Shown here one piece after another: positions 5,352 to 59,632 of a stretch of DNA of 64,000 nucleotides (position 1 is its first letter; every line of letters starts with the position of its first letter). Source of the stretch: an uncultured Alphaproteobacteria bacterium (lineage in GTDB: Bacteria > Pseudomonadota > Alphaproteobacteria > HIMB59 > GCA-002718135). A program made the position numbers and the translations under genes. The stretch covers positions 6,515 to 70,514 of the forward strand of contig CABXWB010000002.1 in assembly GCA_902515745.1 (NCBI GenBank). Reading direction: 5' to 3'. The notes under the pieces are model-generated. The model searched no databases and was not told the origin of the DNA. It saw nothing but the letters and a program-made list of their open reading frames with translations.

Positions 5352-6529
5352 TATCTATCTATCTCTCCAAAAACAATATCTAAGCTACCTAGTATAGCGG
5401 CAATGTCAGCCATTAAGTGGCCTTTAGATAAATGATCCAATGTTTGAAGGTGTGCAAAACCTGGTGCTCTTATTTTACATCTATATGGTTTACTAGATCC
5501 GTCAGAAACCAGGTAAACACCAAATTCACCTTTAGGAGCTTCTACTGCACTATAAACTTGACCAGCTGGAACACGATAACCTTCAGTGAAAAGTTTAAAA
5601 TGATGAATTAAAGCTTCCATTGATTTTTTCATTTGATTTCTTTTAGGAGGCGTAATTTTATTATCCTCAATTGATATTGGACCTGGTTTGATTTTATTTA
5701 AACATTGGTTAATAATACTAATGCTCTGTCTCATTTCCTCAATACGCACCAAATATCGATCAAAACAATCACCTTTTTTTCCAACAGGAACTTCAAAATC
5801 AACTTGATCATAAGCGTCATAAGGTTGAGATCTTCTTAAATCCCATGCTACGCCTGTACTTCTTAGTACAGGACCCGAACACCCCCATTCAATTGCTTCT
5901 GACTTTGAAATTATTCCTATATCAACTGATCTTTGTCTCAATATTCTGTTATTAGTCAGCAAGCTTTCAAGATCATCAATAAATTTTGGGAGAGTTTTAA
6001 AATGTTCAAATAATTTTTCTTCCATTCCTTCTGGCATATCCTGATGAACGCCGCCAGGTCTAAAATAGGCTGCGTGGAATCTTGCTCCAGATACGGCTTC
6101 ATGAAATTCTAAAAGCTTTTCCCTTTCTTCAAAACACCATAAAAATGGTGTCACTGCACCAATGTCAGCAGCATAGGCAGGTATATTTAATAAATGATTA
6201 AGTATTCTAGTAATTTCAGCAAAAATAACACGAATATATTGAGCTCTTTTAGGCACATTAATACCTAGTAGATTTTCAGTTGCTAATGCAAAAGCATGTT
6301 CTTGACACATTGGCGAAACATAATCAAGTCTATCAAAATAAGGAACTGCCTGAAGGTAAGTTTTGTATTCAATTAATTTCTCTGTTCCCCTATGCAACAA
6401 TCCAATATGTGGTTCCGCTCTTTGAACTACTTCACCTTCCAGTTCAACTACTAAACGTAAAACACCATGCGCAGCTGGATGTTGTGGACCAAAGTTAATT
6501 GTAGTTGTATTAAGCTCAACTTCTTTCAT
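5351..6529 (-). CDS. nuoD: NADH-quinone oxidoreductase subunit D (49 kDa)
   Basis: 392 aa. Has [15 protein letters not shown] and the C-terminal [10 protein letters not shown] signature. Confidence 0.95.
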
Positions 6530-7111
6530 TTAATTTTCACCAGTAGATTTCTCATCACCAAAAAGATTGTTTTCCATTCCTTCCCAAGGAGATTCACTAT
6601 CGAAATTTCTAAATTCTTGAGTTAACTTAACAGGCTCATATATTACTTTTTTTTCAAGGTCATCATAGCGAACTTCTGTGTGTCCTGTTAAAGGAAAATC
6701 TTTGCGCAATGGATAACCTTCAAAATTATAATCGGTCATTATCCTTCTTAAATCAGGATGATTAATGAATTCAATTCCAAATAAATCATAACATTCTCTC
6801 TCATACCAATCCGCAGATTTGTGAATATTTGTTATTGATTGTATGTTTTCATTTTCTTTAATAAAAGTTTTAAGAATAATTTTTTTATTTTTAGTTAAAC
6901 TTTGCAAAATATAAATCATATCAAATCTAAATTCTCTTGAAGGATAGTCAACTGCTGTAATATCTAATAATTGATTAAAATTAAGCTCAGTGTTATCTTT
7001 TAATTCGTCAAAAATTTTAATAATATTATTTTTTTCAAATTCTATTTCTAACAAATTATTATTCTCTAAAAGATTATTTATACCATCTATTTTAGTAAGA
7101 ATTTTAATCAT
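6530..7111 (-). CDS. nuoC: NADH-quinone oxidoreductase subunit C (30 kDa)
   Basis: 193 aa. ERECYDLFGIEFINHPDLRRI motif. Operon position agrees. Confidence 0.93.
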   Translation of the reverse strand: MIKILTKIDGINNLLENNNLLEIEFEKNNIIKIFDELKDNTELNFNQLLDITAVDYPSREFRFDMIYILQSLTKNKKIILKTFIKENENIQSITNIHKSADWYERECYDLFGIEFINHPDLRRIMTDYNFEGYPLRKDFPLTGHTEVRYDDLEKKVIYEPVKLTQEFRNFDSESPWEGMENNLFGDEKSTGEN

Positions 7112-7117
7112 ACAAAA

Positions 7118-7651
7118 TTATCTTTTAAATTTATTTTCTCTTCTAATTTTTTTCTGTAATTGCAATATGCCGTAAACTAATGCTTCTGCTGTTGGGGGAC
7201 ATCCTGGTACGTAAACATCAACGGGAACTATCCTATCACACCCTCTAACTACAGAATATGAATAATGATAATATCCGCCACCATTTGCACATGAGCCCAT
7301 TGATATTACCCACCGAGGTTCTGGCATTTGATCGTAAACTTTTCTTAAAGCTGGTGCCATTTTATTTGTTAGTGTGCCCGCAACAATCATTACATCAGAT
7401 TGTCTAGGACTACCTCTTGGAATGACTCCATAACGGTCTAAATCATATCTTGCCATATAAGAATGTATCATTTCTACTCCACAACATGCCAATCCAAAAG
7501 TCATTGGCCATAAGGAACCAGTTCTAGCCCATGTGAGAATTTTATCGTAGCTAGCAACTAAAAAGCCTTTTGAAGATAATTCTGTATTTAGAGTATCATC
7601 TACAATTTTTTTTGACTCATCTACTCCCATTCTAAAGCTCCTTTTTTCCAT
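7118..7651 (-). CDS. nuoB: NADH-quinone oxidoreductase subunit B (20 kDa)
   Basis: 177 aa. Cluster N2 cysteines in [17 protein letters not shown] and VPGCPP. An alternative Met at 7630 would cut the 31-nt overlap with nuoA to 10 nt. Confidence 0.93.
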
Positions 7652-7986
7652 TCATAAATGAACCCAATAGTTAAAACAGTTAGGAATATCATCATTGACC
7701 AAAAACCAAACAACCCAATATTACCTAGTGTTATTGCCCATGGAAACAAGAAAGCTACTTCTAAATCGAAGATAATAAATAAGATTGCTACTAAATAAAA
7801 TCTTACATCAAATCGTCCGCGAGCATCATCAAAAGCTTCAAACCCACATTCATAAGCTGATAATTTTTCTTGATCTGGTTGAGAATCCCCTACTACAAAA
7901 GATAACAATGTCATTCCAACAGCTAATGCCAACGCAATAAATATAAATATTAAAATGGGTAAATATTCAAACAGGAACTCTGACAC
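7621..7986 (-). CDS. nuoA: NADH-quinone oxidoreductase subunit A
   Basis: 121 aa, three TM segments, YECGFE motif. First gene of the nuo operon. Confidence 0.93.
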
Positions 7987-8085
7987 TATAATCTCACAAT
8001 TAAATTAGTAATGTATTTAACGATTTATTCAACAATAACAATGTGTCTCGTTGCGACTTTAGTACACAAAAAAACACTGGGAAGG

Positions 8086-8162
8086 TGGCGCGAGAGACGG
8101 GATTCGAACCCGCGGCCTCTGCCGTGACAGGGCAGCGTTCTAACCAGCTGAACTACTCCCGC
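8086..8162 (-). tRNA. tRNA-Asp (anticodon GUC)
   Basis: The reverse complement GCGGGAGTAGTTCAGCTGGTTAGAACGCTGCCCTGTCACGGCAGAGGCCGCGGGTTCGAATCCCGTCTCTCGCGCCA folds as a cloverleaf. Acceptor is GCGGGAG/CTCTCGC, the anticodon loop CTGTCAC gives GTC, the T-loop is TTCGAAT, and CCA is encoded. Confidence 0.9.
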
Positions 8163-8165
8163 GCA

Positions 8166-8241
8166 TGGTGGGTGTTGAGAGACTTGAACTCCCGACCCTC
8201 TCGGTGTAAACGAGATGCTCTACCAACTGAGCTAAACACCC
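8166..8241 (-). tRNA. tRNA-Val (anticodon UAC)
   Basis: Reverse complement GGGTGTTTAGCTCAGTTGGTAGAGCATCTCGTTTACACCGAGAGGGTCGGGAGTTCAAGTCTCTCAACACCCACCA. Anticodon stem is TCTCG/CGAGA, the loop TTTACAC gives TAC, and CCA is encoded. Confidence 0.9.
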
Positions 8242-8242
8242 A

Positions 8243-8276
8243 AATAAAAACGGCTGTTAAATTTATTTAACAGCCG
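8243..8276 (-). terminator. Intrinsic terminator downstream of hupB
   Basis: Near-perfect palindrome CGGCTGTTAAAT-TT-ATTTAACAGCCG at 8251-8276. On the minus strand it is followed by TTTTTATTT. It sits 20 nt after the hupB stop. Confidence 0.6.
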
Positions 8277-8295
8277 GTGCAAGAAAAAAAGATAA

Positions 8296-8571
8296 TTAAT
8301 TGTTTACTGAATCTTTTAGAGCTTTTCCTACAGTAAACTTTGGTCTTTTAGATGCTGGTATTTGAATAGATTCACCTGTTCTTGGGTTTCTACCAGTAGT
8401 TGCTTTTCTATGGCTTACACTAAAGTTACCAAATCCTACTATACTAACCTTTTCATCTCTTTTTAAAGCATTAGTTATTGCATCTAGAAAGCTTTCAATT
8501 GCTCTAGTTGCGTCAGATTTAGATAATCCTGCGGAAGATGCTACAGATGCGATAAGATCATTTTTGTTCAC
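8296..8571 (-). CDS. hupB: DNA-binding protein HU
   Basis: 91 aa. HU/IHF fold signature GFGNFSVSHRKATTGRNPRTGESIQIPASKRPKF. GTG start preceded by GGAG. Confidence 0.9.
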   Translation of the reverse strand: MNKNDLIASVASSAGLSKSDATRAIESFLDAITNALKRDEKVSIVGFGNFSVSHRKATTGRNPRTGESIQIPASKRPKFTVGKALKDSVNN

Positions 8572-39500: not shown

Positions 39501-40829
39501 CTAGTCTCTTAATGGAACAGGCAAAGTTTCATTTTTCTTTCTAGCCTTATCCCACATTTTTTGATGGTCAGTCATAAAGTCTTCAACTGATATATCACCA
39601 GCCCATACTACTTCCATATCTTTCCAGATATGAACTCCAGGTTCTGCTGGCCAGAAAGTCCATGTACAATATCCGTAGTTTCCTTCACCAGTAATTCTAG
39701 CATATTCATTTAAATAGCTTGTTACTTGAGGTGAGATTGAGCTTGGAATATCACTTTCATCAAGAAGAAGTGGTACAACAAATTCTCCGAATTCAAAGTC
39801 ACTAGCTATATCGATTACTACATCTTTATTGGACATAATCCAGTTTAAGACGTCAATTGCTCCATCTTTATTTTTTGCGGCAGCATTAACAGACATTGTT
39901 GTGCCGATAGCAATCATAAAGTTTGGACCTGTAGAATTAGAGGATAATGATGGTAAAGGAGCCCATCCCCATTCATCATCAGATGCTCCAATTCCTAGAC
40001 TTGTAGCTTGAAAAGTCCAAGTTCCTATTGTCATCATAGCTGCTCCACGAGTAGCAAACTGTGCATGGAAATCATCCCATCCAATAGCGTAGTAGTTTTC
40101 TAAACTACCAGACCACCAACCTTCATTAACCATATGTTTTTTAAGAAGTTCTAAAGCTTCTATAAAAACTGGATCAGTCCATTCTCTTTCGCCAGTAATA
40201 GCTTCATAGACTGCTTCTGGTCCTGCATAGTTATTAAGATAAATACCTACTAAATGTTCATGTGTCGGTTGCCATCCTGATGAACCATATGTGTATACGT
40301 CCATCCCTTTAGCTTTGATCTTTGCTGCTACATCTTCTAATTCTTCACGAGTAGTTGGAACTGTCCAACCATTTTCTTCAAAAAGAGTTTTATTGTAAAG
40401 CATTACCATTGATTCATGTGTTTTAGGAATTGCATATAAGCTGCCTTCAAAAACTCCTGAACTATACGCCCAAGGAATCAATTTATCTTTCCATCCAAAT
40501 TCTGCAGCATAGGAATCAAGATTCTCTAACATACCTGCTTCTTGATATTCTTTAACATAAGAAGGGCCAGGGGTTTCTACGATGTCTGGACCCATACCAG
40601 CTAACATAGAAGTTCTAAGTGATTCAATTCTTGTTTCGTTTGGCTCAAATTGTATTTCTAATTCATAATTATCTTGAGCACTGTTGTATGCATTTTGTAA
40701 TTTTTCTAAAAATATAGGATCTCTATCAGCATTTGATTCCATTGACCAAGTAACCTTGGTTTTAGAGAATGCAGAAAAAGATACAGATAAAACTATTGAA
40801 GTTACAAAACTTATTATGGTTTTATTCAT
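39501..40829 (-). CDS. Extracellular solute-binding protein, carbohydrate ABC (CUT1) family
   Basis: The ORF is open to 40874, but the ATG at 40829 (MNKTIISFVTSIVLSVSFSAFS signal peptide) follows a strong SD, TGGAGGAATT. The SBP family-1 pattern runs throughout. Confidence 0.88.
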   Translation of the reverse strand: MNKTIISFVTSIVLSVSFSAFSKTKVTWSMESNADRDPIFLEKLQNAYNSAQDNYELEIQFEPNETRIESLRTSMLAGMGPDIVETPGPSYVKEYQEAGMLENLDSYAAEFGWKDKLIPWAYSSGVFEGSLYAIPKTHESMVMLYNKTLFEENGWTVPTTREELEDVAAKIKAKGMDVYTYGSSGWQPTHEHLVGIYLNNYAGPEAVYEAITGEREWTDPVFIEALELLKKHMVNEGWWSGSLENYYAIGWDDFHAQFATRGAAMMTIGTWTFQATSLGIGASDDEWGWAPLPSLSSNSTGPNFMIAIGTTMSVNAAAKNKDGAIDVLNWIMSNKDVVIDIASDFEFGEFVVPLLLDESDIPSSISPQVTSYLNEYARITGEGNYGYCTWTFWPAEPGVHIWKDMEVVWAGDISVEDFMTDHQKMWDKARKKNETLPVPLRD

Positions 40830-40992
40830 AATTCCTCCATTTAATAACCACTTCTTAAAGGAAATATAGATCACTTCAAGTTGATATCTAAAAGTGTGTC
40901 AAAATACGGCTAAACAAACAAATAAATTCTATTTTTATAAGTTAAATTTAATAGTATTAATTTTAAAAAGTATTAAGTATCTTTTAATTATT

Positions 40993-44370: not shown

Positions 44371-45222
44371 TCATTCAATAATAATCTCATCAGGTGTTGA
44401 ATCTATTTCTTTTTTATGATCCCACGTAATTCCATTTTTACCAGATCCAAACTTAGCGGATTTATTTGTGAAAGGAAACTGATATAGCATTGAATTAAAA
44501 TATTTTTGCATCTTAGGCAGTGTTTTAAAGTTTAAAAAAAATTTAGATACTAAAGGAAAACCTAATTGTTCAAAAAAATTATCAGAGTTTATATTTTTTA
44601 CAAATTTATAATGTTTCAAAAATGCATAATAAAGTTCTAATGTATCAAACAAATTAAAATCAGGTGAAGAAATATTATTACCTATTAAAAATAGTTTAGT
44701 TTCTTCGTTACTTTTTGAACTAAGCCAATGTTCAAATTTTTGTAACTTCCCAACATTTGAATGTTCAAATGCCTGATTAAAAACAGTTGAAGCTTCACTT
44801 AACTCATCTTTTTCATTTTCAAAATGCGTATAAGCAAATCTTGTCACTATATTCCTTAAATCTACTGTTTCTTGAAGTAATTGATTACATTCTAATTCTT
44901 CTTTAGAATTTTCTCCAAACATATTAAATTTCTTACCAAGAAAAGATAAACAAGTAATAGATTGAGCAATTATTATTTCTTTCCCTCCTTCACTAAATTG
45001 TAAATAAGGTAAATTGATTAAACTATTTTTTTTCTTTAAAATAATTTTATCTTTATCGTGCCATTCACTACCATCATAAGTTAGGTAATTATTTTCTAAT
45101 TTTGGAATTAGTCTGTAAATTTTTGAAGTGAGCGGAGCACCAGCATAAATGATCATTTGACGCGAAGCTGAACCTAAACCTTTAGTGCTCCAGTAACCAA
45201 GAGTAATTTTATTCACATCCAT
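44371..45222 (-). CDS. Glutathione S-transferase-like protein with mu-class-like sequence features
   Basis: 283 aa. The segments ITLGYWSTKGLGSASRQMIIY, YDGSEWHDKDK, NLPYLQF..IIAQSITCLSFLGKK and FLIGNNISSPDFNLFDTLELY align by eye with the mammalian GSTM1 segments ILGYWDIRGLAHAIRLLLEY, YDRSQWLNEKF, NLPYLIDG.KITQSNAILCYIARK and WFAGNKITFVDFLVYDVLDLH. Confidence 0.7.
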   Translation of the reverse strand: MDVNKITLGYWSTKGLGSASRQMIIYAGAPLTSKIYRLIPKLENNYLTYDGSEWHDKDKIILKKKNSLINLPYLQFSEGGKEIIIAQSITCLSFLGKKFNMFGENSKEELECNQLLQETVDLRNIVTRFAYTHFENEKDELSEASTVFNQAFEHSNVGKLQKFEHWLSSKSNEETKLFLIGNNISSPDFNLFDTLELYYAFLKHYKFVKNINSDNFFEQLGFPLVSKFFLNFKTLPKMQKYFNSMLYQFPFTNKSAKFGSGKNGITWDHKKEIDSTPDEIIIE

Positions 45223-45417
45223 ATAAAATATAATTTAAATTAAATATTATTTTATAATCATTCTAAATTTAAATTATAACAAAATCATAATAAAACTTTA
45301 TTTTTTAGAACTTTCTTTGAATAAAATACATCAAAAATATTATTAAAAAAAAATATTTTTTATCTCTATGTAATAATCTCATAATAGTCATCTTATAGTA
45401 TTAAGAAAGGAGGTACT

Positions 45418-46032
45418 ATGTATGCGACATGGAAAATAAGAACTGACTATGCAAATGCAGTAGATATTTTTGATAAAGTTTCACCTTGGTTTAAAGAAAG
45501 TGGAGCTCGAATGACTAATGTTACACATAATATTGGTGGTGATGATAATACATTCACTATGGTAGCAGGATTTGAGAGTTATGAAGCATTTGGTAAAAAT
45601 GATGATGCTTGGGCTTCATCACCAGAATGGTGGCAAAAAATGCAACCAAATTTTGTAAACAACCAGTTAGTTGAAACTGTTTATTTAAATGAATTGATTG
45701 GAAATATTAAAGGTGCTACTGAGCAAATGCCTGTTTGGGCACATTTTGTTTTTAGTCATCCAGATGTGGATGCTATAAAAAAAAGTTTTGAAATTGATGA
45801 AAAACACTACATGTCAAATGGTTCATCAGGAATTGCAATTCATAGAATGTTTGGTGATAGAAATAATCAATATTTATTTGCTGCAAGATTCAACAGTATG
45901 CAAGAGTTAGGCAAGTGCATGGATGCTAATCAAAATTCTCCAGATTATTGGGCAAGTCATAAAGATTATTATGCAAACTTAAATATTCATCTTAATTATA
46001 ATGCCAGAGTAATTAGGAGAAATATTTATTAA
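45418..46032 (+). CDS. Hypothetical protein, paralogue A (two tandem ~100-aa repeats)
   Basis: 204 aa. Strong SD AAGGAGG 6 nt upstream. The N- and C-halves align ungapped at ~30% identity (ESGARMTNVTHNIGGDDNTFTMVAGFESYEAFGKNDDAWASSPEWW versus SNGSSGIAIHRMFGDRNNQYLFAARFNSMQELGKCMDANQNSPDYW). No signal peptide. Confidence 0.8.
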   Translation: MYATWKIRTDYANAVDIFDKVSPWFKESGARMTNVTHNIGGDDNTFTMVAGFESYEAFGKNDDAWASSPEWWQKMQPNFVNNQLVETVYLNELIGNIKGATEQMPVWAHFVFSHPDVDAIKKSFEIDEKHYMSNGSSGIAIHRMFGDRNNQYLFAARFNSMQELGKCMDANQNSPDYWASHKDYYANLNIHLNYNARVIRRNIY

Positions 46033-46046
46033 AAAAGGAGGTAAAA

Positions 46047-46664
46047 ATGATTGTAGGAAGTTGGCAATATAAAATTAGTAATGACAGAGCAATGTCAGGC
46101 TACAAAATTGTTTCAAAGTATGCAGAAAAATATGGTGCTATAGGAACTTCAATAGCCACTCATCAAGGAGCAGATACATCTGTCTATAATATTGATATTG
46201 GATATAATAATTATCAACACTTTGGTGAAATGGATGATAGTTGGAGTACAGATAGTGAATTTGGTTCTGAGATGGAAGCTTATTTTGGAATGAGTGAACA
46301 TGTTAGAATGAATTTCTATGAACCTTTAATGCACGAAATGCCATTCAATGGTGTTAAAAGCTGCTTTGCTATCTGGAAATTTTCTCACTCAAATAGAGAG
46401 TTAGTTCTAAAAGAGTCAGAAAGTTTCTTTAAATATTGGATGGATAATGGATCAACAGGCTGTACCGTTGGAACTTTAAGTGGAGCTGATTTTGGTCAAT
46501 ATGGCTTTGGTGCCAGATTTAACAATATGGCTGATTATGGAAAAGCAGAGGATAAGCTGAATGGAGATAAAGTATGGGACAATCATCAAGAAATGCTTAG
46601 CTCAACAATTTGGGATGGATTTAATCTCAGAAGAGTTTTAGCTGAAAATGGCTGGAAAGAATAA
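46047..46664 (+). CDS. Hypothetical protein, paralogue B (two tandem ~100-aa repeats)
   Basis: 205 aa. SD AAGGAGG 5 nt upstream. Clearly homologous to paralogue A (WMDNGSTGCTVGTLSGADFGQYGFGARFNNMADYGKAEDK versus YMSNGSSGIAIHRMFGDRNNQYLFAARFNSMQELGKCMDA). Confidence 0.8.
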   Translation: MIVGSWQYKISNDRAMSGYKIVSKYAEKYGAIGTSIATHQGADTSVYNIDIGYNNYQHFGEMDDSWSTDSEFGSEMEAYFGMSEHVRMNFYEPLMHEMPFNGVKSCFAIWKFSHSNRELVLKESESFFKYWMDNGSTGCTVGTLSGADFGQYGFGARFNNMADYGKAEDKLNGDKVWDNHQEMLSSTIWDGFNLRRVLAENGWKE

Positions 46665-46722
46665 ATATTTTGATAATTTTACAACGAATGAGCATAGCGT
46701 AATTGATGGACCATAAAATAAT

Positions 46723-46750
46723 GCGGACTTTTTAGTCCGCTTTTTCTTTT
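46723..46750 (+). terminator. Intrinsic terminator after the paralogue pair
   Basis: GCGGACT-TTTT-AGTCCGC followed by TTTTTCTTTT, 58 nt after the stop of paralogue B. Confidence 0.75.
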
Positions 46751-46956
46751 GATTATTATTAAATCAATTTAATTTATATCACTGTGGATAATAATTTTTT
46801 TAGATCCAATATATTTTTGGTGAAAATTATGATTCTTTTTTAAATTTTCCATTAAATTAGAAATTAAATCTTATAAGCTGTTATTTTTTAATAATAATTT
46901 TCAAAAACTTTTATGACATATTATTTAAATATTTATTAAAAAAAATGGGGGTAAAA

Positions 46957-48285
46957 ATGAAAATTATATCAATTTTTATTAGCTTCTTGTTTTTATCATT
47001 TTCTTTAAACGCTGAAACTATCAAGTATTGGACTACTGAAGAACAGCCTGCAAGAATGATGAAACAAGTTCAAATGGCTGTAGATTTTAATAAAGCTTCT
47101 GGCCATAATGTTACAGTTATACCAATTTCAGAGAATGAAATGGGCAAAAGAGCTGTAGCTGGTTTTGCTGCAGATGATTTGCCAGATGTAATCTATACTA
47201 CTTTACAGTATATTTTACCTTGGGCTGAAGAAGGCATAATCGATGTAGATGCTACAAACGAAGTAGTTAATATGTTAGGTGGTTCTACTTTTGGTGAAAA
47301 AGCTCTAGGCATGGCAAGTTACGATAGTAAATTTGCTGGAGTGCCAGTTGATGGTTGGACTCAAATGGTAGTCTACAGAAAAGATCTTTTTGAAGAAAAA
47401 GGTTTAGCAGCACCAAATACTTTTGATAACATTCTAAAAGCAATTGATGCACTACACAATCCACCAAATATGTATGGATTTGTGGCTGCAACAAAAACTG
47501 ATGAAAACTTTATGAGTCAGGTATTAGAGCACGTGCTTTTAGCAAATGGATGTTCGCCTGTTGATTCTTCAGGGATTGCCGAAATGGGCAGTACTTGTGT
47601 TGAAGCAATTGATTTTTATGAAGAATTAGCAAAAGCAAGTCCTCCAGGTGATTTATTCTGGCAACAATCTCGTGAATTATATTTTGCTGGTAAAGCAGCT
47701 ATGATTATTTGGTCACCTTTTATTATGGATGAATTAGCTGGTCTTAGAGACTCAGCGCCTCCAACAATAAATGATGATCCAACTTCACCAGAATTAGCAA
47801 GTAAAACTGGTTTCATTACTAACTTTGCTGGCCCAAGTAACCCAAGTGGTGCTGCGTGGGCAGATGTTAGATTTATGATTATTACAGATTCTGCTAACAC
47901 AGAAGTTGCACAAGAATGGATTAAATATGCTGTTGGCGATGGTTATGTTCAAACTTTAAGTATCGCTCCTGAAGGTAAATTTCCTGTTCGTAGAGGAGAT
48001 GCTTCAGACTCAGATAAATTTGTCCAAGCTTGGAGTAGCTTACCTGTAGGTGTAGATCGAAAAGCACCACTTAAAGATTTATATGATGCATCAGTCATTA
48101 ATGACATTGTTGCAGGACTAGATGTTGCTGAAAGATGGGGGGTCAAAGAAGGCCAGCTATCTGCAGCTTCAAAAATAATTAATAGTCAAATTATAAATCG
48201 TGAGGTTAGAGAAGTTATAGATGGCAACAAATCTGCTAGTGATGCAGTAGCTGCTATAAATAGCCAAATTAGCGATATAGACTAA
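46957..48285 (+). CDS. Extracellular solute-binding protein, carbohydrate ABC (CUT1) family
   Basis: Signal peptide MKIISIFISFLFLSFSLNA follows GGGGGTAAAA. The ORF is open from 46945. SBP family-1 features are present. GC content is visibly higher than in the adjacent permease genes. Confidence 0.88.
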   Translation: MKIISIFISFLFLSFSLNAETIKYWTTEEQPARMMKQVQMAVDFNKASGHNVTVIPISENEMGKRAVAGFAADDLPDVIYTTLQYILPWAEEGIIDVDATNEVVNMLGGSTFGEKALGMASYDSKFAGVPVDGWTQMVVYRKDLFEEKGLAAPNTFDNILKAIDALHNPPNMYGFVAATKTDENFMSQVLEHVLLANGCSPVDSSGIAEMGSTCVEAIDFYEELAKASPPGDLFWQQSRELYFAGKAAMIIWSPFIMDELAGLRDSAPPTINDDPTSPELASKTGFITNFAGPSNPSGAAWADVRFMIITDSANTEVAQEWIKYAVGDGYVQTLSIAPEGKFPVRRGDASDSDKFVQAWSSLPVGVDRKAPLKDLYDASVINDIVAGLDVAERWGVKEGQLSAASKIINSQIINREVREVIDGNKSASDAVAAINSQISDID

Positions 48286-48304
48286 AATTTTTTTTTATCG
48301 TATT

Positions 48305-48330
48305 AAAGGCGACATATATTGTCGCCTTTT
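48305..48330 (+). terminator. Intra-operon terminator/attenuator hairpin after the binding-protein gene
   Basis: AAAGGCGACA-TATAT-TGTCGCCTTTT. It starts 20 nt after the SBP stop and ends 6 nt before the permease ATG. Confidence 0.55.
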
Positions 48331-48335
48331 CATCA

Positions 48336-49577
48336 ATGTTTAACTTAAATAAAGAAGCAAAATTAGCATACACAATGCTAATTCCTACAATTAGTATCGT
48401 TTTTTTAATTATATTATTTCCTATTTTTGGAAATTTTTGGTTAAGCTTTAAAGAAGTTAAACTTGGTGATTTAAGAGCGCCACAACCTATCATAAAAGAA
48501 AAACTTAAGACTAAAGATATAGAGCCTGGAGATGATATTTTAATTGAATATAGATTCAAAAATAGTTCACAAAAAAAACCAATATTTAATATAGAAATTA
48601 CTGATAAAATTTCAAAATTTATTTCACCTGTAGAAATTGCTGAAGGATGTTCAGTAAATAATAATTTATTGAGTTGTTATTTTGAAGAATGGAAACCAAA
48701 ATATAATGAAAAAATAATTTTTAAATTTAAAGCGAATGATAATTTTGAAATAGATAATTTCAATCCAAAAGAAAGCAAACCAAGAGGTGCTGCTGATGCA
48801 GATAATATTTTAACAAACTTAAAATTTTCTCTTAAAAATTTTCAAAAAATATTACAAAAAAATGAAACAATAGAAAATATAAAGGTAACTTTTTTATATT
48901 CTTTTTTTGCTACTATCGGAGCATTATTATTAGGTATAAGTGCTGCTTTATTACTTGAAAAAAATTTTTTAGGAAAAGGATTTTTTAGAGGTTTATTTTT
49001 ATTTCCCTTTGTTTCTCCTGTAATAGCAGTAGCATTTACCTGGGTTTACATTTTAGATCCTTTTAAGGGCTTTCTTAATAATTATTTATTAAACAACGAA
49101 TTTATAAGTGAGCCAATTTTTTTCTTAGGACTAAAAAAAGTTGATTTTCTTGGGTTTGATTTTCCATTTACTCTATTTATTGTAATTCTTTTTGAGAGCT
49201 GGAGATATTTTCCATTAGCTTTTTTATTTATACTAGCAAGATTACAAGCTATTCCAAAAGATCTTTACGAGGCATCGGATATTGATGGAGCAACAAGAAT
49301 ACAACAGTTTTTTTACATTACATTACCGCAATTACTTGGAGTTATTTCCCTGCTTTTCATTTTACGTTTCATTTGGAACTTTAATAAGTTTGAGGATATA
49401 TTTTTATTAACGGGGGGTAATGCTGGAACTAGAACATTAACGGTTCAGGTGTACGATGAAGCTTTTGCACTTTCAAATATGGGCACTGCATCTTCAGTAG
49501 CTGTACTTATATTTATTCTTTTGGCAATTTTTGTTTTCATTCATCAAAAAATAGCACCTAAGGATATAGAAGAATGA
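48336..49577 (+). CDS. Carbohydrate ABC transporter permease (MalF type) with ~150-aa periplasmic insertion
   Basis: 413 aa. EAA loop DLYEASDIDGATRIQQFFYITLP. Between TM1 and TM2 there is a soluble beta-rich segment, GDDILIEYRFKNSSQKKPIFNIEITDKISKFISPVEIAEGCSVNNNLLSCYFEEWKPKYNEKIIFKFKAND, resembling DUF11/CARDB-type Ig-like repeats. Confidence 0.88.
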   Translation: MFNLNKEAKLAYTMLIPTISIVFLIILFPIFGNFWLSFKEVKLGDLRAPQPIIKEKLKTKDIEPGDDILIEYRFKNSSQKKPIFNIEITDKISKFISPVEIAEGCSVNNNLLSCYFEEWKPKYNEKIIFKFKANDNFEIDNFNPKESKPRGAADADNILTNLKFSLKNFQKILQKNETIENIKVTFLYSFFATIGALLLGISAALLLEKNFLGKGFFRGLFLFPFVSPVIAVAFTWVYILDPFKGFLNNYLLNNEFISEPIFFLGLKKVDFLGFDFPFTLFIVILFESWRYFPLAFLFILARLQAIPKDLYEASDIDGATRIQQFFYITLPQLLGVISLLFILRFIWNFNKFEDIFLLTGGNAGTRTLTVQVYDEAFALSNMGTASSVAVLIFILLAIFVFIHQKIAPKDIEE

Positions 49578-50779
49578 CAAATAATATTTATCAGTTTTTT
49601 TTCATTTATTTATATTCAATAATTACGCTATTTTTATTAGCTGTAATTGGAGATTTTGTTTCAATATCAATTTTTCTATCAAAAAATATATTTATTTATA
49701 AAAATATTTTTCTATATTGTTTCCTCTATGCAGTTTGTTTTTTTGCAATACGAATTATAATTACCAATCAAGTCTCTAACATTTTTATTTTTATAATATC
49801 TTTAGCTTTATCGTATTTTCTTCTTATTAATAAAGAAATTAATGCCTATCAATTATTAATTATTATATCAGTGTTTATTGTTTTTAATCTACTGTTACAA
49901 AAATATTTTACAGCTAAAAATTTTAGTAATTTTTTATTTGAAGTTTCTTTTTTAAAATTTCTTAAAACAAATAGTTTAATATTTTTTTCTTTTATAATTA
50001 TTTTTCCTTTTTATTTAATGTTTGTATCAAGCTTAAAAAGCCAAATGGTTTTGTTACAAAACCCAACTGATTTAAGTATTCCATTTTTTTATTCAATATC
50101 AGATTTTTTTTCTAGTTATATTGCTGTTATCACTCAATACAACTTTTTAAATTTTGCTTTAAACAGCACTATTGTCTCATTTGTAACTGTTTTCGTCAGT
50201 TTGTTTTTTTCTATTCCAGGTGCATATGCAGTTGCACGCTTAAGATTTGCAGGAAGATCGAAAATATCATCATCTATTTTAATAATATATATGGTTCCAG
50301 CTATAGTACTTGTAATTCCACTTTATGTTATATTCAGTCAGCTTGGTTTTAGAAATAGCTTGTTTAGTCTAATGATTGTTTATCCGGCAACAACTATTCC
50401 TGTTGCACTTTACATGTTGCAAGGATATTTCAAAGGTATCCCATATGAACTAGAAGAGTCTGCTCTTATTGATGGGTGTTCTCGTGTTGGGGTCATCTTA
50501 AGAATTACATTACCTTTAAGTGTCCCGGCTATTTTGTCTGTTTCATTGTACGTATTTATGATTGCTTGGAATGAATTCTTATTTGCTTTTATGTTTTTAG
50601 ATAATCAAGAATATTTTACTATACCAAGAGGTCTTTATACTCAACTTGATGATCAAGAGGTACCGAGACAATATTTAATGGCTGGATCAGTAATGATAAC
50701 CGTGCCTGTACTCTTACTATTTTTTATTTTTGAAAGATACTTAGTAGGAGGTTTAACTGCAGGAAGCGTTAAAGGCTAA
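49574..50779 (+). CDS. Carbohydrate ABC transporter permease (MalG type) with ~125-aa four-TM N-terminal extension
   Basis: 401 aa. The canonical MalG core starts near KTNSLIFFSFIIIFPFYLMFVSSLK. EAA loop YELEESALIDGCSRVGVILRITLP. The start is an ATGA overlap with the upstream gene. There is no alternative start codon before the core. Confidence 0.88.
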   Translation: MTNNIYQFFFIYLYSIITLFLLAVIGDFVSISIFLSKNIFIYKNIFLYCFLYAVCFFAIRIIITNQVSNIFIFIISLALSYFLLINKEINAYQLLIIISVFIVFNLLLQKYFTAKNFSNFLFEVSFLKFLKTNSLIFFSFIIIFPFYLMFVSSLKSQMVLLQNPTDLSIPFFYSISDFFSSYIAVITQYNFLNFALNSTIVSFVTVFVSLFFSIPGAYAVARLRFAGRSKISSSILIIYMVPAIVLVIPLYVIFSQLGFRNSLFSLMIVYPATTIPVALYMLQGYFKGIPYELEESALIDGCSRVGVILRITLPLSVPAILSVSLYVFMIAWNEFLFAFMFLDNQEYFTIPRGLYTQLDDQEVPRQYLMAGSVMITVPVLLLFFIFERYLVGGLTAGSVKG

Positions 50780-50837: not shown

Positions 50838-50912
50838 GCTGATATAGTATAATGGTTATTACAGGCCGTTGGTAACGGTCAGATTCAAGTTCGATTCTCG
50901 GTATCAGCACCA
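50838..50912 (+). tRNA. tRNA-Thr (anticodon GGU)
   Basis: GCTGATATAGTATAATGGTTATTACAGGCCGTTGGTAACGGTCAGATTCAAGTTCGATTCTCGGTATCAGCACCA. The acceptor GCTGATA/TATCAGC is perfect. Anticodon stem is GGCCG/CGGTC and the loop TTGGTAA gives GGT. The T-loop is TTCGATT. The T-stem has one A-C mismatch and one U-G pair. Confidence 0.8.
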
Positions 50913-55896: not shown

Positions 55897-57030
55897 ATGA
55901 GTGAACATTTTTTTTGCTCTTCGCTCAGTAACATCAAAAGATCTGAATGGAATAAATGTGTTGGAAATGATCATCCATTCTTACAATATGAATTTCTTCA
56001 CGCTTTAGAAAAAAGTAATAGTGCAAATACCAAAACAGGTTGGCAGCCATATCATTATATTGAAAAAGAAAATGATAAAATTATCTCATTATGTCCTCTT
56101 TATTTAAAGAACCATTCTTTTGGAGAATATATTTTTGATCATTCTTGGGCTGATGCTTATCATCGATATGGAATAAACTATTATCCAAAACTGCAATCTG
56201 CAATACCGTTTACGCCAGTAACTGGTGATAGAATTGTTTTAAACAAATCAGTTAAAGATAAAAAGGGAAAGCAAGTTCAGGTAATTAATAATATTATAGA
56301 AGAAGCAAAAAAAATAAATGTTTCTTCTCTCCATTTTAATTTTATCAATGATGCATCAAATTGGACTGGTATTGATAATATTATGGTTAGATCAGGAATA
56401 CAATTTCATTGGAACAATAATGAATACAAAAATTTTAATGAATTCTTAAATGACTTATCCTCAAGAAAAAGAAAAATTATTAGGCGAGAAAGACAATGTA
56501 TTGAAAATAATAATTTAACTGTAAAATTACTTAATGGAGATGAAATTAAAGAAGAGCATATAAATTTTTTTTACGATTGTTATTTAGATACAACAGGTAG
56601 AAAATGGGGTTCTACTTATTTAACTAAAGAATTTTTCTTTGATATATTACAGAATTTTAAAAATAAAATATTGCTTATAATGGCTTATCAAGAAAATAAA
56701 ATGGTTGCGTCTGCAATTAATTTTCTAAGTAAAACTCATTTGTATGGACGATTATGGGGATCAAAATATGAAGTACCATTTTTACATTTTGAACTCTGTT
56801 ATTATCAAGCAATTGAATACGCAATTCAAAATAAGATTCAAATTGTAGAAGCAGGTGCTCAAGGTGAGCATAAATTACAAAGAGGTTATGCACCTACAAA
56901 AACATGGAGTGCTCATTGGATTAAAGATAAAGAATTTAGCAAAGCTATCCAAAATTTTCTTGATAATGAAAGTCAGCTTATTGATAGCCAAAAAGAAAAA
57001 TTAGAAGATTATCTGCCTTTCAAAAATTAG
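55897..57030 (+). CDS. GNAT/FemAB-like protein of the DUF482 family
   Basis: 377 aa. HPFLQYEFLHALEKS, TGWQPYH, GEYIFDHSWADAY, GRLWGS and VEAGAQGEHKLQRGY match the conserved alphaproteobacterial DUF482 pattern. Confidence 0.75.
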   Translation: MSEHFFCSSLSNIKRSEWNKCVGNDHPFLQYEFLHALEKSNSANTKTGWQPYHYIEKENDKIISLCPLYLKNHSFGEYIFDHSWADAYHRYGINYYPKLQSAIPFTPVTGDRIVLNKSVKDKKGKQVQVINNIIEEAKKINVSSLHFNFINDASNWTGIDNIMVRSGIQFHWNNNEYKNFNEFLNDLSSRKRKIIRRERQCIENNNLTVKLLNGDEIKEEHINFFYDCYLDTTGRKWGSTYLTKEFFFDILQNFKNKILLIMAYQENKMVASAINFLSKTHLYGRLWGSKYEVPFLHFELCYYQAIEYAIQNKIQIVEAGAQGEHKLQRGYAPTKTWSAHWIKDKEFSKAIQNFLDNESQLIDSQKEKLEDYLPFKN

Positions 57031-59300
57031 GCTAATTCTTTTTTTACTTCTTGTTTATTAGAAAATTCAAAGTTAATTTTTTTATCTTTACATGTAATTT
57101 CAACATGCCCACCTTTAGCTAGTTTACCAAAGATAAGTTCTTCAGCCATCGGTTTTTTAACTTTTTCTTGTATTACTCTACCTAATTCTCTAGCACCGTA
57201 AACTTCATCATAACCCTCTTCAGCTAAAAATTCCTTTGCTTCTTTATTAATTGATAATGAAACCCCTTTGTCTTCGAGCTGTGCTTCAATTTCTATAATA
57301 AATTTATCTACTATCGAAAGTACAATATTTTTGGATAAATGATTAAAATGAATAATTGAGTCAATACGATTTCTAAATTCTGGTGAAAAAATTCTATTTA
57401 TTGCATCACTACTATCATCGTTAGATCGTTTTGCATTAAAACCAATTTTGTTTTTAGATACATCAATTGCACCAGCATTAGTTGTCATAATTAATATAAC
57501 GTTTCTAAAATCTATCGTCTTACCATTATGATCAGTTAGTTTTCCATAATCCATTACTTGTAAAAGAATATTGAATAAATCATAGTGGGCTTTTTCAATT
57601 TCATCCAATAACAATACACAATGAGGATTTTGATCGACTCCATCAGTTAATAACCCACCTTGGTCGAAACCTACGTAACCAGGAGGGGCTCCAATAAGTC
57701 TGCTCACGGTGTGACGCTCCATATATTCTGACATATCAAATCTAAGAAGTTTAATACCAAGTGTATTACTTAATTGTTTAGCTACCTCAGTCTTCCCTAC
57801 TCCTGTAGGCCCAGAAAATAGATATGAGCCAATTGGCTTTCCATCTTCTCTTAGTCCTGCTCTTGCTAGCTTAATGGAAGATGATAATTCTTCAATGGCC
57901 TTGTCTTGACCAAAGACGAAATTTTTCAAATCTCTCTCTAAATTTTTTAAACTGTTCTTATCACTTTGATTAACAGATTTTGTTGGAATTCTTGCCATTA
58001 AAGCAACTACTGCTTCAATATCTTTGGAAAGAATAATTTTTTTTCTCTTTTCTTCTGGTAATAAATATTGAGATGCTCCTGCTTCATCGATAACATCAAT
58101 AGCTTTATCTGGAAGCTTTCTATCGCCTATATATTTATTAGATAACTCGACTGCACTAATAATTGCTTCCGGTGAATATTTAATATTATGGTGTTCTTCA
58201 TAGTACGTTTTTAAACCCTCAAGAATTTTTACGGTCTCATCTTTCGATGGCTCCTTAACATCAATTTTTTGAAATCTTCTTACTAAAGCTCTATCTTTCT
58301 CAAAATAATTTTTAAATTCCTTATATGTTGTTGATCCAATACATTTAAGAGTACCATTTCCTAGAGACGGTTTTAATAAATTACTTGCATCCATTGAGCC
58401 TCCACTCGTTGCTCCTGCTCCGATAACTGTGTGTATTTCATCGATAAATAGAACAGCTTTGTCCTTCTTTTGTAATTCTTTAAGAACTGCTTTCAATCTT
58501 TCTTCAAAATCACCTCTGTATCTAGTGCCTGCTAATAATGCGCCCATATCTAAAGAATAAATTACAGCATCCTCCATAATTTTAGGCACTTTTTTTTCAG
58601 TAATTCTTTTTGCTAAACCTTCAGCAATCGCTGTTTTTCCAACACCAGGGTCTCCAACGAATAAAGGATTATTTTTTTGTCTTCTACATAAAATTTGAAT
58701 TGTTCTATCTAATTCTTTGCTTCTACCAATTAGCTTATCAACTTTACCATCTTTTGATTTTTCATTAAGATTTATACAAAATTGACCTAAAGCAGTTTTA
58801 GGTTTTTGTTGCGCATTATTATCATTTGTTTGACTATCTACAAATTCTTCATTTTCAAAACTTTCGTTAGCTTTTGAAATACCATGTGAGATATATTGAA
58901 CCGCATCTAATCTACTCATATTTTGTTGATGAAGAAAATATACTGCATGGCTTTCTTTCTCAGAAAATAAAGCTACAATCATATTAGCACCTGTAACACT
59001 CTCTCTTCCACTCGATTGTACGTGTATAGCAGCTCTTTGTAAAACTCTTTGAAAACCATTTGTTAGTTTTGGCTCGCCTGTAAAATTTTCTTTAAGGTTT
59101 TCTAAATCGTTAATAATAAATTTTTCAACGTTTTCTTTTAAATTTGAAATATCAACAGCACAGGCTTTAAGTACACTAATTGCATCTTGATCTTCCAAAA
59201 GAGAATATAAAAGATGCTCCAGAGTTACAAACTCATGCTTATAGTTAGTTGCTAATTGATAGGCTTCTCTTAATGTTTTTTCTAAATTTTGTGACAGCAT
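57027..59300 (-). CDS. clpA: ATP-dependent Clp protease ATP-binding subunit ClpA
   Basis: Two AAA+ modules (GDPGVGKTA and GPTGVGKTE). The N-domain starts [14 protein letters not shown] at 59300, with a TAATG overlap on the clpS stop. The ORF is open to 59321. Confidence 0.95.
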   Translation of the reverse strand: MLSQNLEKTLREAYQLATNYKHEFVTLEHLLYSLLEDQDAISVLKACAVDISNLKENVEKFIINDLENLKENFTGEPKLTNGFQRVLQRAAIHVQSSGRESVTGANMIVALFSEKESHAVYFLHQQNMSRLDAVQYISHGISKANESFENEEFVDSQTNDNNAQQKPKTALGQFCINLNEKSKDGKVDKLIGRSKELDRTIQILCRRQKNNPLFVGDPGVGKTAIAEGLAKRITEKKVPKIMEDAVIYSLDMGALLAGTRYRGDFEERLKAVLKELQKKDKAVLFIDEIHTVIGAGATSGGSMDASNLLKPSLGNGTLKCIGSTTYKEFKNYFEKDRALVRRFQKIDVKEPSKDETVKILEGLKTYYEEHHNIKYSPEAIISAVELSNKYIGDRKLPDKAIDVIDEAGASQYLLPEEKRKKIILSKDIEAVVALMARIPTKSVNQSDKNSLKNLERDLKNFVFGQDKAIEELSSSIKLARAGLREDGKPIGSYLFSGPTGVGKTEVAKQLSNTLGIKLLRFDMSEYMERHTVSRLIGAPPGYVGFDQGGLLTDGVDQNPHCVLLLDEIEKAHYDLFNILLQVMDYGKLTDHNGKTIDFRNVILIMTTNAGAIDVSKNKIGFNAKRSNDDSSDAINRIFSPEFRNRIDSIIHFNHLSKNIVLSIVDKFIIEIEAQLEDKGVSLSINKEAKEFLAEEGYDEVYGARELGRVIQEKVKKPMAEELIFGKLAKGGHVEITCKDKKINFEFSNKQEVKKELA

Positions 59301-59632
59301 TAACTTTTTTCCATTGTACATTGTAAGGGATGTTCATTTTTTTTTGCCATATCCATTACCGATTTACATTTAGACTCCGCTACCTCATAAGTAAATGTTC
59401 CACATACTCCAATACCATTTTTATGAACATGTAGCATAATTTGCGTTGCCTCTTCTTGTTTTTTATTAAATATTTTTTCTAAAACCATTACAACAAATTC
59501 CATGGGAGTATAATCATCATTTAATAATAAAACATTATACATAGAAGGTTTTTTTGTTTTTGGTTTAGTATCTAATAATAGACCCCTTTGAAAATCCTCA
59601 TTATTATTGTTATTTTGATCTTCATTTGCCAT
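59300..59632 (-). CDS. clpS: ATP-dependent Clp protease adaptor ClpS
   Basis: 110 aa. [24 protein letters not shown] and [13 protein letters not shown] are the ClpS core. Confidence 0.93.

Follow-up and report, generated by a model that had tools for sequence, protein, structure and literature searches.

Two adjacent genes of a SAR11-type marine bacterium encode paralogous cytoplasmic proteins of ~205 amino acids, each made of two fused beta-alpha-beta-beta-alpha-beta ferredoxin-like modules, and their operon sits between a GST-like gene and a tRNA-Thr gene, in a small SAR11 flexible genomic island. The proteins are a new, divergent branch of an already known family, DUF6854, and not a new kind of system. 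We hold the fold, the family, and the island architecture with high confidence. Overall, we cautiously favor an explanation in which this DUF6854 barrel pair in a flexible island has a small-molecule role, as enzymes or as binders. All positions are those of the 64,000-nucleotide stretch of DNA that was analyzed (the window).

Two fused modules per protein and a known family

Gene A (45418..46032, + strand, 204 amino acids) belongs to the A clade, subtype A1, and gene B (46047..46664, + strand, 205 amino acids) to the B clade, subtype B1. BLASTP aligned their products at 27% identity over 183 amino acids (E = 2e-22), in agreement with the first-pass annotation, which had called the two adjacent reading frames paralogues. 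Reading-frame, Pfam, AlphaFold (AF2), and Foldseek analyses place a single-chain tandem of ferredoxin-like (alpha+beta barrel) modules in A, with module 1 at approximately residues 2 to 95 (45421-45702) and module 2 at approximately residues 106 to 203 (45733-46026); B has the same arrangement, at approximately residues 2 to 97 (46050-46337) and 106 to 201 (46362-46649). That each gene is an internal duplication of a ~100-amino-acid module also held: the halves of A matched each other at E = 1.7e-6, with 33% identity over a 46-amino-acid core, those of B matched at E = 5.9e-6, and half-versus-half Smith-Waterman z scores were 9.5 (A) and 9.0 (B), the observed score being reached by none of 500 shuffles. 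Identity over full-length halves is 19% (A) and 24% (B), and the best ungapped register gives 18%, so the earlier figure of about 30% ungapped identity between the halves of A applies to the beta3-alpha2 core only. Among SAR11 single-cell genomes, purifying selection acts on both genes (dN/dS of 0.11 [A] and 0.05 [B]), and no signal peptide was seen by eye at either N terminus.

The AF2 models (pLDDT 87 and pTM 0.84 for A; pLDDT 91 for B) have DSSP strings with beta-alpha-beta-beta-alpha-beta topology twice per chain, the secondary-structure arrangement characteristic of their superfamily, and the two modules are predicted to pack into a “pseudo-dimeric” alpha+beta barrel, as they do in that superfamily. 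All top structural neighbors returned by Foldseek for A and B were tandem or dimeric alpha+beta barrels. First for each was 2PGC (TM 0.77 to 0.78 and E = 8e-10 for A; TM 0.79 to 0.81 and E = 1.6e-12 for B), with alignments spanning ~206 columns, followed by 3MCS and 3F44 (tandem ABM-like “putative monooxygenases”), 5F9P (anthrone-oxidase-like), PenE, and sulfur oxygenase reductase (SOR). Tandem modules in the models and tandem barrels among the PDB matches thus bear out the earlier guess of a ferredoxin-like dimeric alpha/beta-barrel fold. The structure 2PGC, a JCSG entry for a “novel family” protein from the Global Ocean Sampling (GOS) marine metagenome and the type structure of DUF6854, shares with A and B a length of ~205 amino acids and two modules per chain, and 2PGC-type proteins come from low-GC marine bacterioplankton. 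Our literature search found 2PGC mentioned only among five structures from novel GOS families.

Against Pfam DUF6854 (PF21614), A scored 29.3 bits in two stretches, marginally above the gathering cutoff of 27, and B scored 13.4 bits, below that cutoff; 2PGC itself scored 125 bits, also in two stretches, and 9 of 11 family representatives matched at E ≤ 1. PDB searches that used A, B, P0038, or P0047 as single sequences gave nothing useful, and 2PGC was reached only by the 11-member family profile, for which 2pgc_A ranked first in the PDB (E = 0.0034, positions 6-181 against 17-192). The pair had previously been considered not assignable to a family, a statement that DUF6854 overturns. Among the families that had been named as reminiscent, NIPSNAP (PF07978) matched gene A only, weakly (13.8 bits, E = 0.068) and below its cutoff of 22.3 bits, and neither DUF1330 nor rhamnose mutarotase gave a Pfam match to A or B at E ≤ 10; NCBIfam returned no family. 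The branch is nevertheless divergent, with only 12 to 17% identity to 2PGC and B under the Pfam cutoff. At E ≤ 1e-3, the A/B profile matched only 40 representatives among 1.84 billion proteins, so the branch is small and mostly SAR11 restricted. Word-seeded homologue searches returned “hypothetical protein” names only, none of which named a cultured Pelagibacter strain, and literature searches on DUF6854, on Pelagibacter with ydhR, and on SAR11 metaproteomes with ferredoxin-like proteins found nothing.

A and B also resemble tandem ABM-type proteins (5F9P, PenE 9KDP, 3MCS, and 3F44), which are single-chain double ferredoxin-like barrels of ~210 to 240 amino acids (TM 0.6 to 0.7), but they have no Pfam ABM match (PF03992, E ≤ 10) and no polyketide or aromatic pathway context, and identity is ~10 to 14%. 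With SOR (2CB2 and relatives), they share a tandem ferredoxin-like core, at a TM normalized to the query of 0.72 to 0.75; however, SOR has ~308 amino acids, and it requires a 2-His-1-carboxylate iron site plus cysteines. In our family alignment, most invariant positions are structural (Gly or aromatic residues), the others being D62/D63, D169, and R197, with no invariant His, Cys, or Glu and no other obvious catalytic residue. We rejected SOR as an identity for A and B because these columns contain neither its iron-binding His, His, and Glu nor its catalytic cysteines. It is likewise very unlikely that the pair are heme-binding or heme-degrading barrels (IsdG/HmoB/HemQ/chlorite-dismutase/DyP-like) or an iron-dependent SOR-like enzyme: HmoB, HemQ, Cld, DyP, and SOR do appear among the Foldseek matches (TM 0.5 to 0.75), and His114 is present in A1, A2, and all B subtypes, but A3 has Cys and the outgroup has Pro at that position, the family lacks an invariant His, Cys, or Glu, 2PGC and the ABM-like matches stand far ahead of the heme proteins in the ranking, and SOR is longer by 100 residues. 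The C-terminal module is the better conserved of the two and may be the likelier functional site (F112, F154, R157, F158, G165, and D169, within its “ARFNSM..YGK..D” motif); a putative substrate pocket, placed by secondary-structure position only, would lie between sheet and helices.

Loss of a third gene from the barrel operon

Each gene is preceded by the Shine-Dalgarno sequence AAGGAGG, at 45407..45413 (+ strand), 4 nt 5' of the ATG of A, and at 46035..46041 (+ strand), 5 nt 5' of the ATG of B and inside the 14-nt A-B spacer. Their anti-Shine-Dalgarno duplex energies (-12.2 and -12.9 kcal/mol) are the top two among 59 open reading frames, the next being -9.3, which sustains the first-pass view of them as the strongest sites in the window. 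The 7-mer is not rare there, contrary to the same annotation (5 observed versus 5.3 expected), and only the A and B copies lie at ribosome-binding-site distance from a start codon. A GGAGG core is kept upstream of nearly all family members in related loci (AAGGAG only in L023 and P0017), and the sequence of the 14-nt spacer is conserved irrespective of which paralogue comes next. The strength of these sites suggests that A and B may be highly expressed. An Rfam search of 45150-47000 found no riboswitch or leader, and a promoter scan did no better than shuffled sequence (41 sites versus 45 expected from shuffles).

Genes A and B share, as had been proposed, a clean intrinsic terminator at 46723..46750 (+ strand), with a 7-bp GC-rich stem, a 4-nt loop, and a U-run (GCGGACU-UUUU-AGUCCGC plus the U-run; -12.3 kcal/mol, z = -4.5). 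In this genome A and B form a bicistron, as described earlier, but it is not an original unit of two: the ancestral operon consisted of an A-clade gene, a B-clade gene, a ydhR-like gene, and the terminator, and the form in the window is derived by deletion of ydhR. The ydhR-like gene, a third barrel gene with a single module, is the conserved partner of A and B in related loci, where the intact gene scores 46.8 bits against PF08803 and its start overlaps the B stop codon (ATGA) in L010. Alignments to L001/L003 and L010 locate ~50 nt of its 3' end in the window, at 46665..46720 (+ strand), and comparison with L010 and L001 shows a loss of ~250 nt that takes in the first ~75 codons. An identical hairpin lies 3' of ydhR in L001, and the terminator at 46723-46750 is the one that ended the A-B-ydhR operon ancestrally. 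In L033-L036, ydhR is followed by a 174-amino-acid open reading frame that does not belong to the family.

A flexible island with exchangeable paralogues

We compared gene layouts in 35 related loci; 20 SAR11 loci span the site fully. Related loci were collected by the presence of A/B, so cells without barrel genes lie outside the sample. On the left, the variable segment is bordered by the divergently transcribed GST-like gene (44371..45222, - strand), the alleles of which are bimodal (~70% versus 88 to 100% identity), and on the right it is anchored by tRNA-Thr(GGT) (50838..50912, + strand), found in 11 of 11 related loci checked. Flanking proteins are 96 to 99% (ABCF) and 91 to 99% (DsbA-like) identical across loci. 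Inside the island there are eight different A/B paralogue arrangements, with ydhR, MFS, and ABC genes each optional. The A- and B-clade paralogues are 25 to 76% identical and are mixed and matched between cells (A1-B1, A2-B1, A1-B3, and A2-B4), and MFS or ABC transporter cassettes are inserted or absent independently of them. Fixed position between core genes, variable content, and replacement of divergent paralogues mark the segment as a flexible island. Paralogue replacement at fixed SAR11 islands was described by Molina-Pardines et al. (2025, PMC11796062), whose islands, as presented there, likewise have a small variable region fixed between core genes, divergent paralogues of presumably equivalent function that replace one another, and transporter cassettes among the variable genes. 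By term search, the main text of that paper names neither the present island nor its barrel genes and does not mention GST, pdxJ, or MFS. In this organization, as A/B pairs accompanied by ydhR within a flexible island, the SAR11 genes differ from 2PGC-type genes, which are solitary.

The layouts bear on whether the proteins work only together. An obligate hetero-oligomer, in which A-type and B-type barrels pair with each other and A, B, and YdhR (where present) are subunits of one multisubunit enzyme or cage, would suit the fixed order of most loci, where a single A-clade gene precedes a single B-clade gene across the conserved 14-nt Shine-Dalgarno spacer, as well as the overlap of the B stop and ydhR start in L010, the five identical chains of the 2PGC entry, and SOR, a structural neighbor that is a 24-mer. 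We consider it unlikely, as B1 occurs without any A gene in L023 and L024, A3 without any A1 or B gene in L033-L036, and A1-A3 without B in L013, A and B subtypes combine freely, and distant homologues and 2PGC-type genes stand alone.

Downstream of the pair lies an ABC cassette (46945..50779, + strand), comprising a solute-binding protein and two permeases with no ATPase gene, which is an optional insertion between the barrel operon and the conserved tRNA-Thr. From this adjacency, the first-pass annotation had proposed a sugar-anomer or substrate-processing role, a reading in which rhamnose-mutarotase-like accessory proteins work with the downstream sugar transporter. The transporter components are of sugar type (SBP_bac_1 and BPD_transp_1), and the barrels share their fold superfamily with rhamnose mutarotase. 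However, a strong terminator and a ~200-nt spacer separate pair and cassette, A and B have no mutarotase Pfam match, and the co-occurrence check that had been suggested revealed no conserved linkage: the cassette is present in 7 of the 20 complete loci, where it accompanies other paralogue combinations too, and identical A1-B1 pairs lack it (L010 and L015). Among ABC-bearing loci, an MFS gene lies between barrel genes and cassette in L016 and L019, and ydhR plus an MFS gene in L024. Because conserved linkage is absent, this reading is largely refuted, and we regard it as highly improbable.

A phage-defense or phage-interaction cassette could also be considered, as the island is hypervariable, adjoins a tRNA gene, and shows discrete replacement of alleles. 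This is extremely unlikely, given PADLOC and PHROGs matches at noise level only, the absence of nuclease, ATPase, and sensor domains, strong purifying selection within subtypes, and N termini of A and B without a signal peptide by eye.

Candidate roles of the barrel proteins

The neighborhood is rich in genes of small-molecule or detoxification type (two GST-like, DsbA/HCCA-isomerase-like, beta-lactamase-family, MFS, and GYD), and in related loci a gene of the YdhR “putative mono-oxygenase” family adjoins the barrel genes, a further likeness to ABM-type proteins. By analogy, an enzymatic small-molecule role for A and B is plausible, and we propose it tentatively. The proteins would be abundant, soluble small-molecule enzymes or binders, cofactor independent like ABM-type oxygenases and isomerases, and paralogue swapping between strains would diversify substrate specificity, as has been proposed generally for SAR11 flexible islands. 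Several observations weigh against this role. A biochemical function is known for no DUF6854 member, the invariant sites are mostly Gly and aromatic with no His, Cys, or Glu, and the fold is functionally promiscuous, serving enzymes, heme proteins, regulators, and binding proteins. Moreover, the distant relatives are solitary genes in unrelated, uninformative contexts (P-II and Sel1 beside P0017; DUF3422 and creatinase-like beside P0111; dienelactone hydrolase, 2OG oxygenase, RidA, cupin, MaoC, and MFS beside 2PGC-type genes), and no conserved partner gene emerged around them.

The same lack of conserved catalytic residues would suit a non-enzymatic abundant protein, a stress-responsive or ligand-buffering barrel of the plant and bacterial Dabb or NIPSNAP type that sequesters a metabolite without transforming it. 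The weak NIPSNAP similarity agrees with such a protein, and the very strong Shine-Dalgarno sites suggest stoichiometric rather than catalytic amounts. We nonetheless think it improbable, since discrete divergent paralogues and the company of YdhR and GSTs suit enzymes equally well or better.

A more elaborate version of the enzymatic role, to which we assign a low probability, is a highly expressed barrel-enzyme system, specific to SAR11, in which A-clade, B-clade, and YdhR-like proteins serve as interchangeable subunits and recombination at the conserved Shine-Dalgarno junctions reshuffles the composition between cells. If so, lineages would differ in specificity toward a class of dissolved organic compounds, or toward thiol-reactive toxins that the flanking GSTs help to handle, and the island would be a case of combinatorial “paralogue cassette” niche partitioning in the most abundant ocean bacterium.

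SAR11 is the most abundant bacterial group of the surface ocean and has a core genome with very few paralogues. Here, a barrel family has undergone duplication both inside the gene and of the gene as a whole, and its members are exchanged from cell to cell; together with the best ribosome-binding sites in 64 kb, this makes the family a good candidate for an adaptive trait at the strain level. The proteins are a tractable target, as they are small and predicted to be soluble and the structure of a homologue is solved. Assigning their function would provide an annotation for DUF6854 as well as for a recurring component of the SAR11 flexible genome.

Tandem proteins of duplicated ferredoxin-like modules

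In this window, which has 29.6% G+C, gene A (45418-46032, 204 aa) is followed on the plus strand, after 14 nt, by gene B (46047-46664, 205 aa). The first-pass annotation took them for paralogues that are each internally duplicated, and both points hold. A and B share 27% identity over 183 residues (BLASTP, E 2e-22), and the N- and C-terminal halves match each other within A (E 1.7e-6; Smith-Waterman z-score 9.5) and within B (E 5.9e-6; z-score 9.0), with 0 of 500 shuffles reaching the observed score in either case. The identity of about 30% first given for the halves applies to the 46-residue beta3-alpha2 core only; across entire halves it falls to 19% (A) and 24% (B). Because same-position halves of A and B (E 1e-11 and 2e-13) are closer than the two halves inside one protein, the internal duplication predates the A/B split. 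Both are real genes under constraint, with a dN/dS of 0.11 (A) and 0.05 (B) across SAR11 single-cell genomes.

AlphaFold2 models of A (pLDDT 87, pTM 0.84) and B (pLDDT 91, pTM 0.84) are confident and show the topology beta-alpha-beta-beta-alpha(-alpha)-beta twice per chain. As modeled, the repeated unit is a ferredoxin-like module of the alpha+beta-barrel superfamily, whose barrels form via dimerization or via duplication and fusion (PMC4835899). The early guess of such a fold was correct, with 2PGC as the top PDB match for both models (A, TM 0.77-0.78, E 8e-10; B, TM 0.79-0.81, E 1.6e-12). Next come 3MCS and 3F44 (tandem ABM-like “putative monooxygenases”), 5F9P (anthrone-oxidase-like), PenE, and sulfur oxygenase reductase. 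Heme barrels rank lower, and the family alignment contains no invariant His, Cys, or Glu; that A and B are heme or iron enzymes is very unlikely.

Against Pfam DUF6854 (cutoff, 27 bits), A scores 29.3 bits in two stretches and B only 13.4. A profile built from eleven diverse members of the family retrieves 2pgc_A as its top PDB sequence, at full length (E 0.0034), and DUF6854 matches the sequence of 2PGC in two stretches with 125 bits; from these matches, we equate DUF6854 with the 2PGC family. Fold and family were already known as DUF6854 and its crystal structure 2PGC, which JCSG solved for a Global Ocean Sampling protein as one of five structures representing “novel” GOS families, with no function assigned (PMC2557142). 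What is new is the tie of B and the wider A/B branch to this family. The branch is small: HMMER, run exhaustively on 1.84 billion representative proteins, found 40 that reach E<=1e-3 and 7 that reach E<=1e-30; any that carry a name are called “hypothetical.” Across the family, W5, G29, G40, F112, G135, G146, F154, F158, G165, and D169 are invariant and D62, D63, and R197 nearly so. Conservation is higher in the C-terminal module (motif ARFNSM..YGK..D), which would hold the putative functional pocket.

The distant homologues include P0017, a B-clade protein at 37-44% identity on a contig of 36% G+C, and P0111, an outgroup at ~20% identity. P0111 clusters at 90% identity with P0047, which lies on a contig of 54% G+C. 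The P0017 and P0111 genes are solitary, in unrelated contexts; 2PGC-type genes are likewise solitary, on marine contigs of ~30% G+C with varying neighbors (dienelactone hydrolase, 2OG-Fe(II) oxygenase, RidA, cupin, MaoC, and MFS). These contexts point to no specific pathway. Since such genes stand alone, their products can function alone, which makes it unlikely that A and B form an obligate heteromer.

Operon signals and a lost third gene

AAGGAGG lies 4-5 nt upstream of the ATG of both genes. Of the 59 window ORFs of at least 100 aa, these two have the strongest predicted anti-SD pairing (-12.2 and -12.9 kcal/mol), ahead of the third at -9.3. The motif had been called rare in the window; these are indeed the only copies at ribosome-binding distance, but the heptamer as such is not below chance (5 seen versus 5.3 expected). 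The proposed terminator was recovered as a hairpin (46723-46740) followed by a U-run (-12.3 kcal/mol, z -4.5). GGAGG-type SD sequences precede nearly all barrel genes in related loci, across arrangements. Elsewhere, GGAGG motifs at 40829-40838 and 58394-58403 (minus strand) lie 4 nt ahead of internal, in-frame start codons in ORFs 39501-40874 and 57027-59321; these genes may truly begin further downstream than the longest ORFs suggest.

The commonest partner of the barrel genes is ydhR, a 105-aa YdhR-family gene (PF08803, 46.8 bits) for a single-module barrel protein, placed after the last or middle tandem gene; in the related locus L010, its ATG overlaps the stop codon of B. In the window, about 250 nt are deleted, and a remnant directly 3' of B (46665-46720) aligns to the last ~16 codons of ydhR, reading FDNFTTNEHSVIDGP and stop; the gene is intact at 105 aa in L010 and L001. 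The terminator after the remnant is that found 3' of ydhR in L001. Remnant and terminator together indicate that the A-B bicistron derives from a tricistronic barrel-protein operon. The operon of A/B-type genes with ydhR is newly described here.

A combinatorial island beside tRNA-Thr

The nearest relatives of the locus are all SAR11 (Pelagibacteraceae) single-cell genomes, and we mapped genes in each of 35 related loci. The left flank is conserved: an ABCF ATPase (96-99% identical), a DsbA/HCCA-isomerase-like protein (91-99%), and a divergently transcribed GST-like gene (44371-45222, minus strand, 283 aa). Alleles of the latter are bimodal (about 69-70% versus 88-100% identity) and uncorrelated with A/B subtype, so the variable region reaches into it. 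The right anchor, tRNA-Thr(GGT) (50838-50912), is found in every related locus examined; beyond it lie DUF4174, a small membrane protein, a second GST, and PdxJ. The mechanically listed DUF4174 start (50912) overlaps the final base of the tRNA, so the true start is probably further downstream.

Gene content differs in the stretch from the GST-like gene to the tRNA. The barrel proteins form two clades, A (A1, the window type; A2, 76% identical to A1; A3, 36-40%) and B (B1, the window type; B2, B3, and B4, 47-52% identical to B1). A1-B1 occurs in the window, L009, L022, L010, and L015; A2-B1 in L020; A2-B4 in L001-L003 and L005-L008, with L004 stopping within the second gene; A1-B3 in L011, L016, L019, and L021; A1-A3-ydhR-B2 in L012, L014, and L018; A1-A3 in L013; B1-ydhR without any A gene in L023 and L024; and A3-ydhR without A1 or B in L033-L036. 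The L012, L014, and L018 operons (about 6001-8380) carry three tandem-barrel paralogues along with ydhR, giving a row of six DUF6854-type modules and one YdhR module. The junction of the first gene's final codons and spacer (46020-46046, …ATATTTATTAAAAAAGGAGG…ATGAT; same in L001, L011, L012, L013, and L020) is near-identical before B1, B3, B4, or A3, irrespective of the downstream paralogue, and is a possible recombination site for the exchange of cassettes.

Many relatives also have a GYD-domain gene (PF08734) lying after the second GST and before pdxJ (L001 8078-8398; equivalent site in L010, L013, L014, L020, L023, and L033); it is absent from the window. GYD proteins belong to this barrel superfamily as well. 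A beta-lactamase-family gene, too, is carried by some loci and not by others. The exchange of discrete paralogues within a flexible island next to a tRNA gene fits the general pattern that PMC11796062 describes for SAR11; the combinatorial paralogue island adjoining tRNA-Thr is described here for the first time.

The ABC cassette (46945-50779; one solute-binding protein and two permeases, no ATPase gene) lies past the A/B terminator. The two permeases, of 413 and 401 aa, are longer than usual, and the transport domain occupies only their C-terminal ~200 residues. A sugar-anomer or substrate-processing role linked to this system had been suggested for A and B, but the linkage is not conserved. 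Only 7 of the 20 loci spanning the entire variable segment have the cassette (the window, L009, L016, L019, L021, L022, and L024), beside differing barrel combinations, and an MFS gene intervenes in 3 of the 7. L010 and L015 have identical A1-B1 pairs with ydhR and an MFS gene in its place, and in L011, L013, and L023 the operon directly precedes the tRNA. The cassette proteins are 94-100% identical regardless of the adjacent barrel alleles, so the cassette behaves as a mobile unit, and it is an independent insertion into the same island. A transporter-accessory role for A and B is accordingly highly improbable.

Proposed role of the barrel proteins

A and B are single-chain pseudo-dimeric barrels, encoded by a strong SD-driven operon under purifying selection and subject to paralogue replacement in a flexible island. 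The neighborhood is GST-rich, with esterase and efflux genes, which is compatible, circumstantially, with handling of reactive or aromatic small molecules. A function in defence is the least probable of the readings considered, and a purely non-enzymatic binding role is also unlikely. Tentatively, we favor the view that A and B are abundant in the cytoplasm and convert or bind small molecules in the cofactor-independent manner known from the ABM/YdhR branch of the superfamily; their specificity would be tuned as paralogues are swapped between cells.
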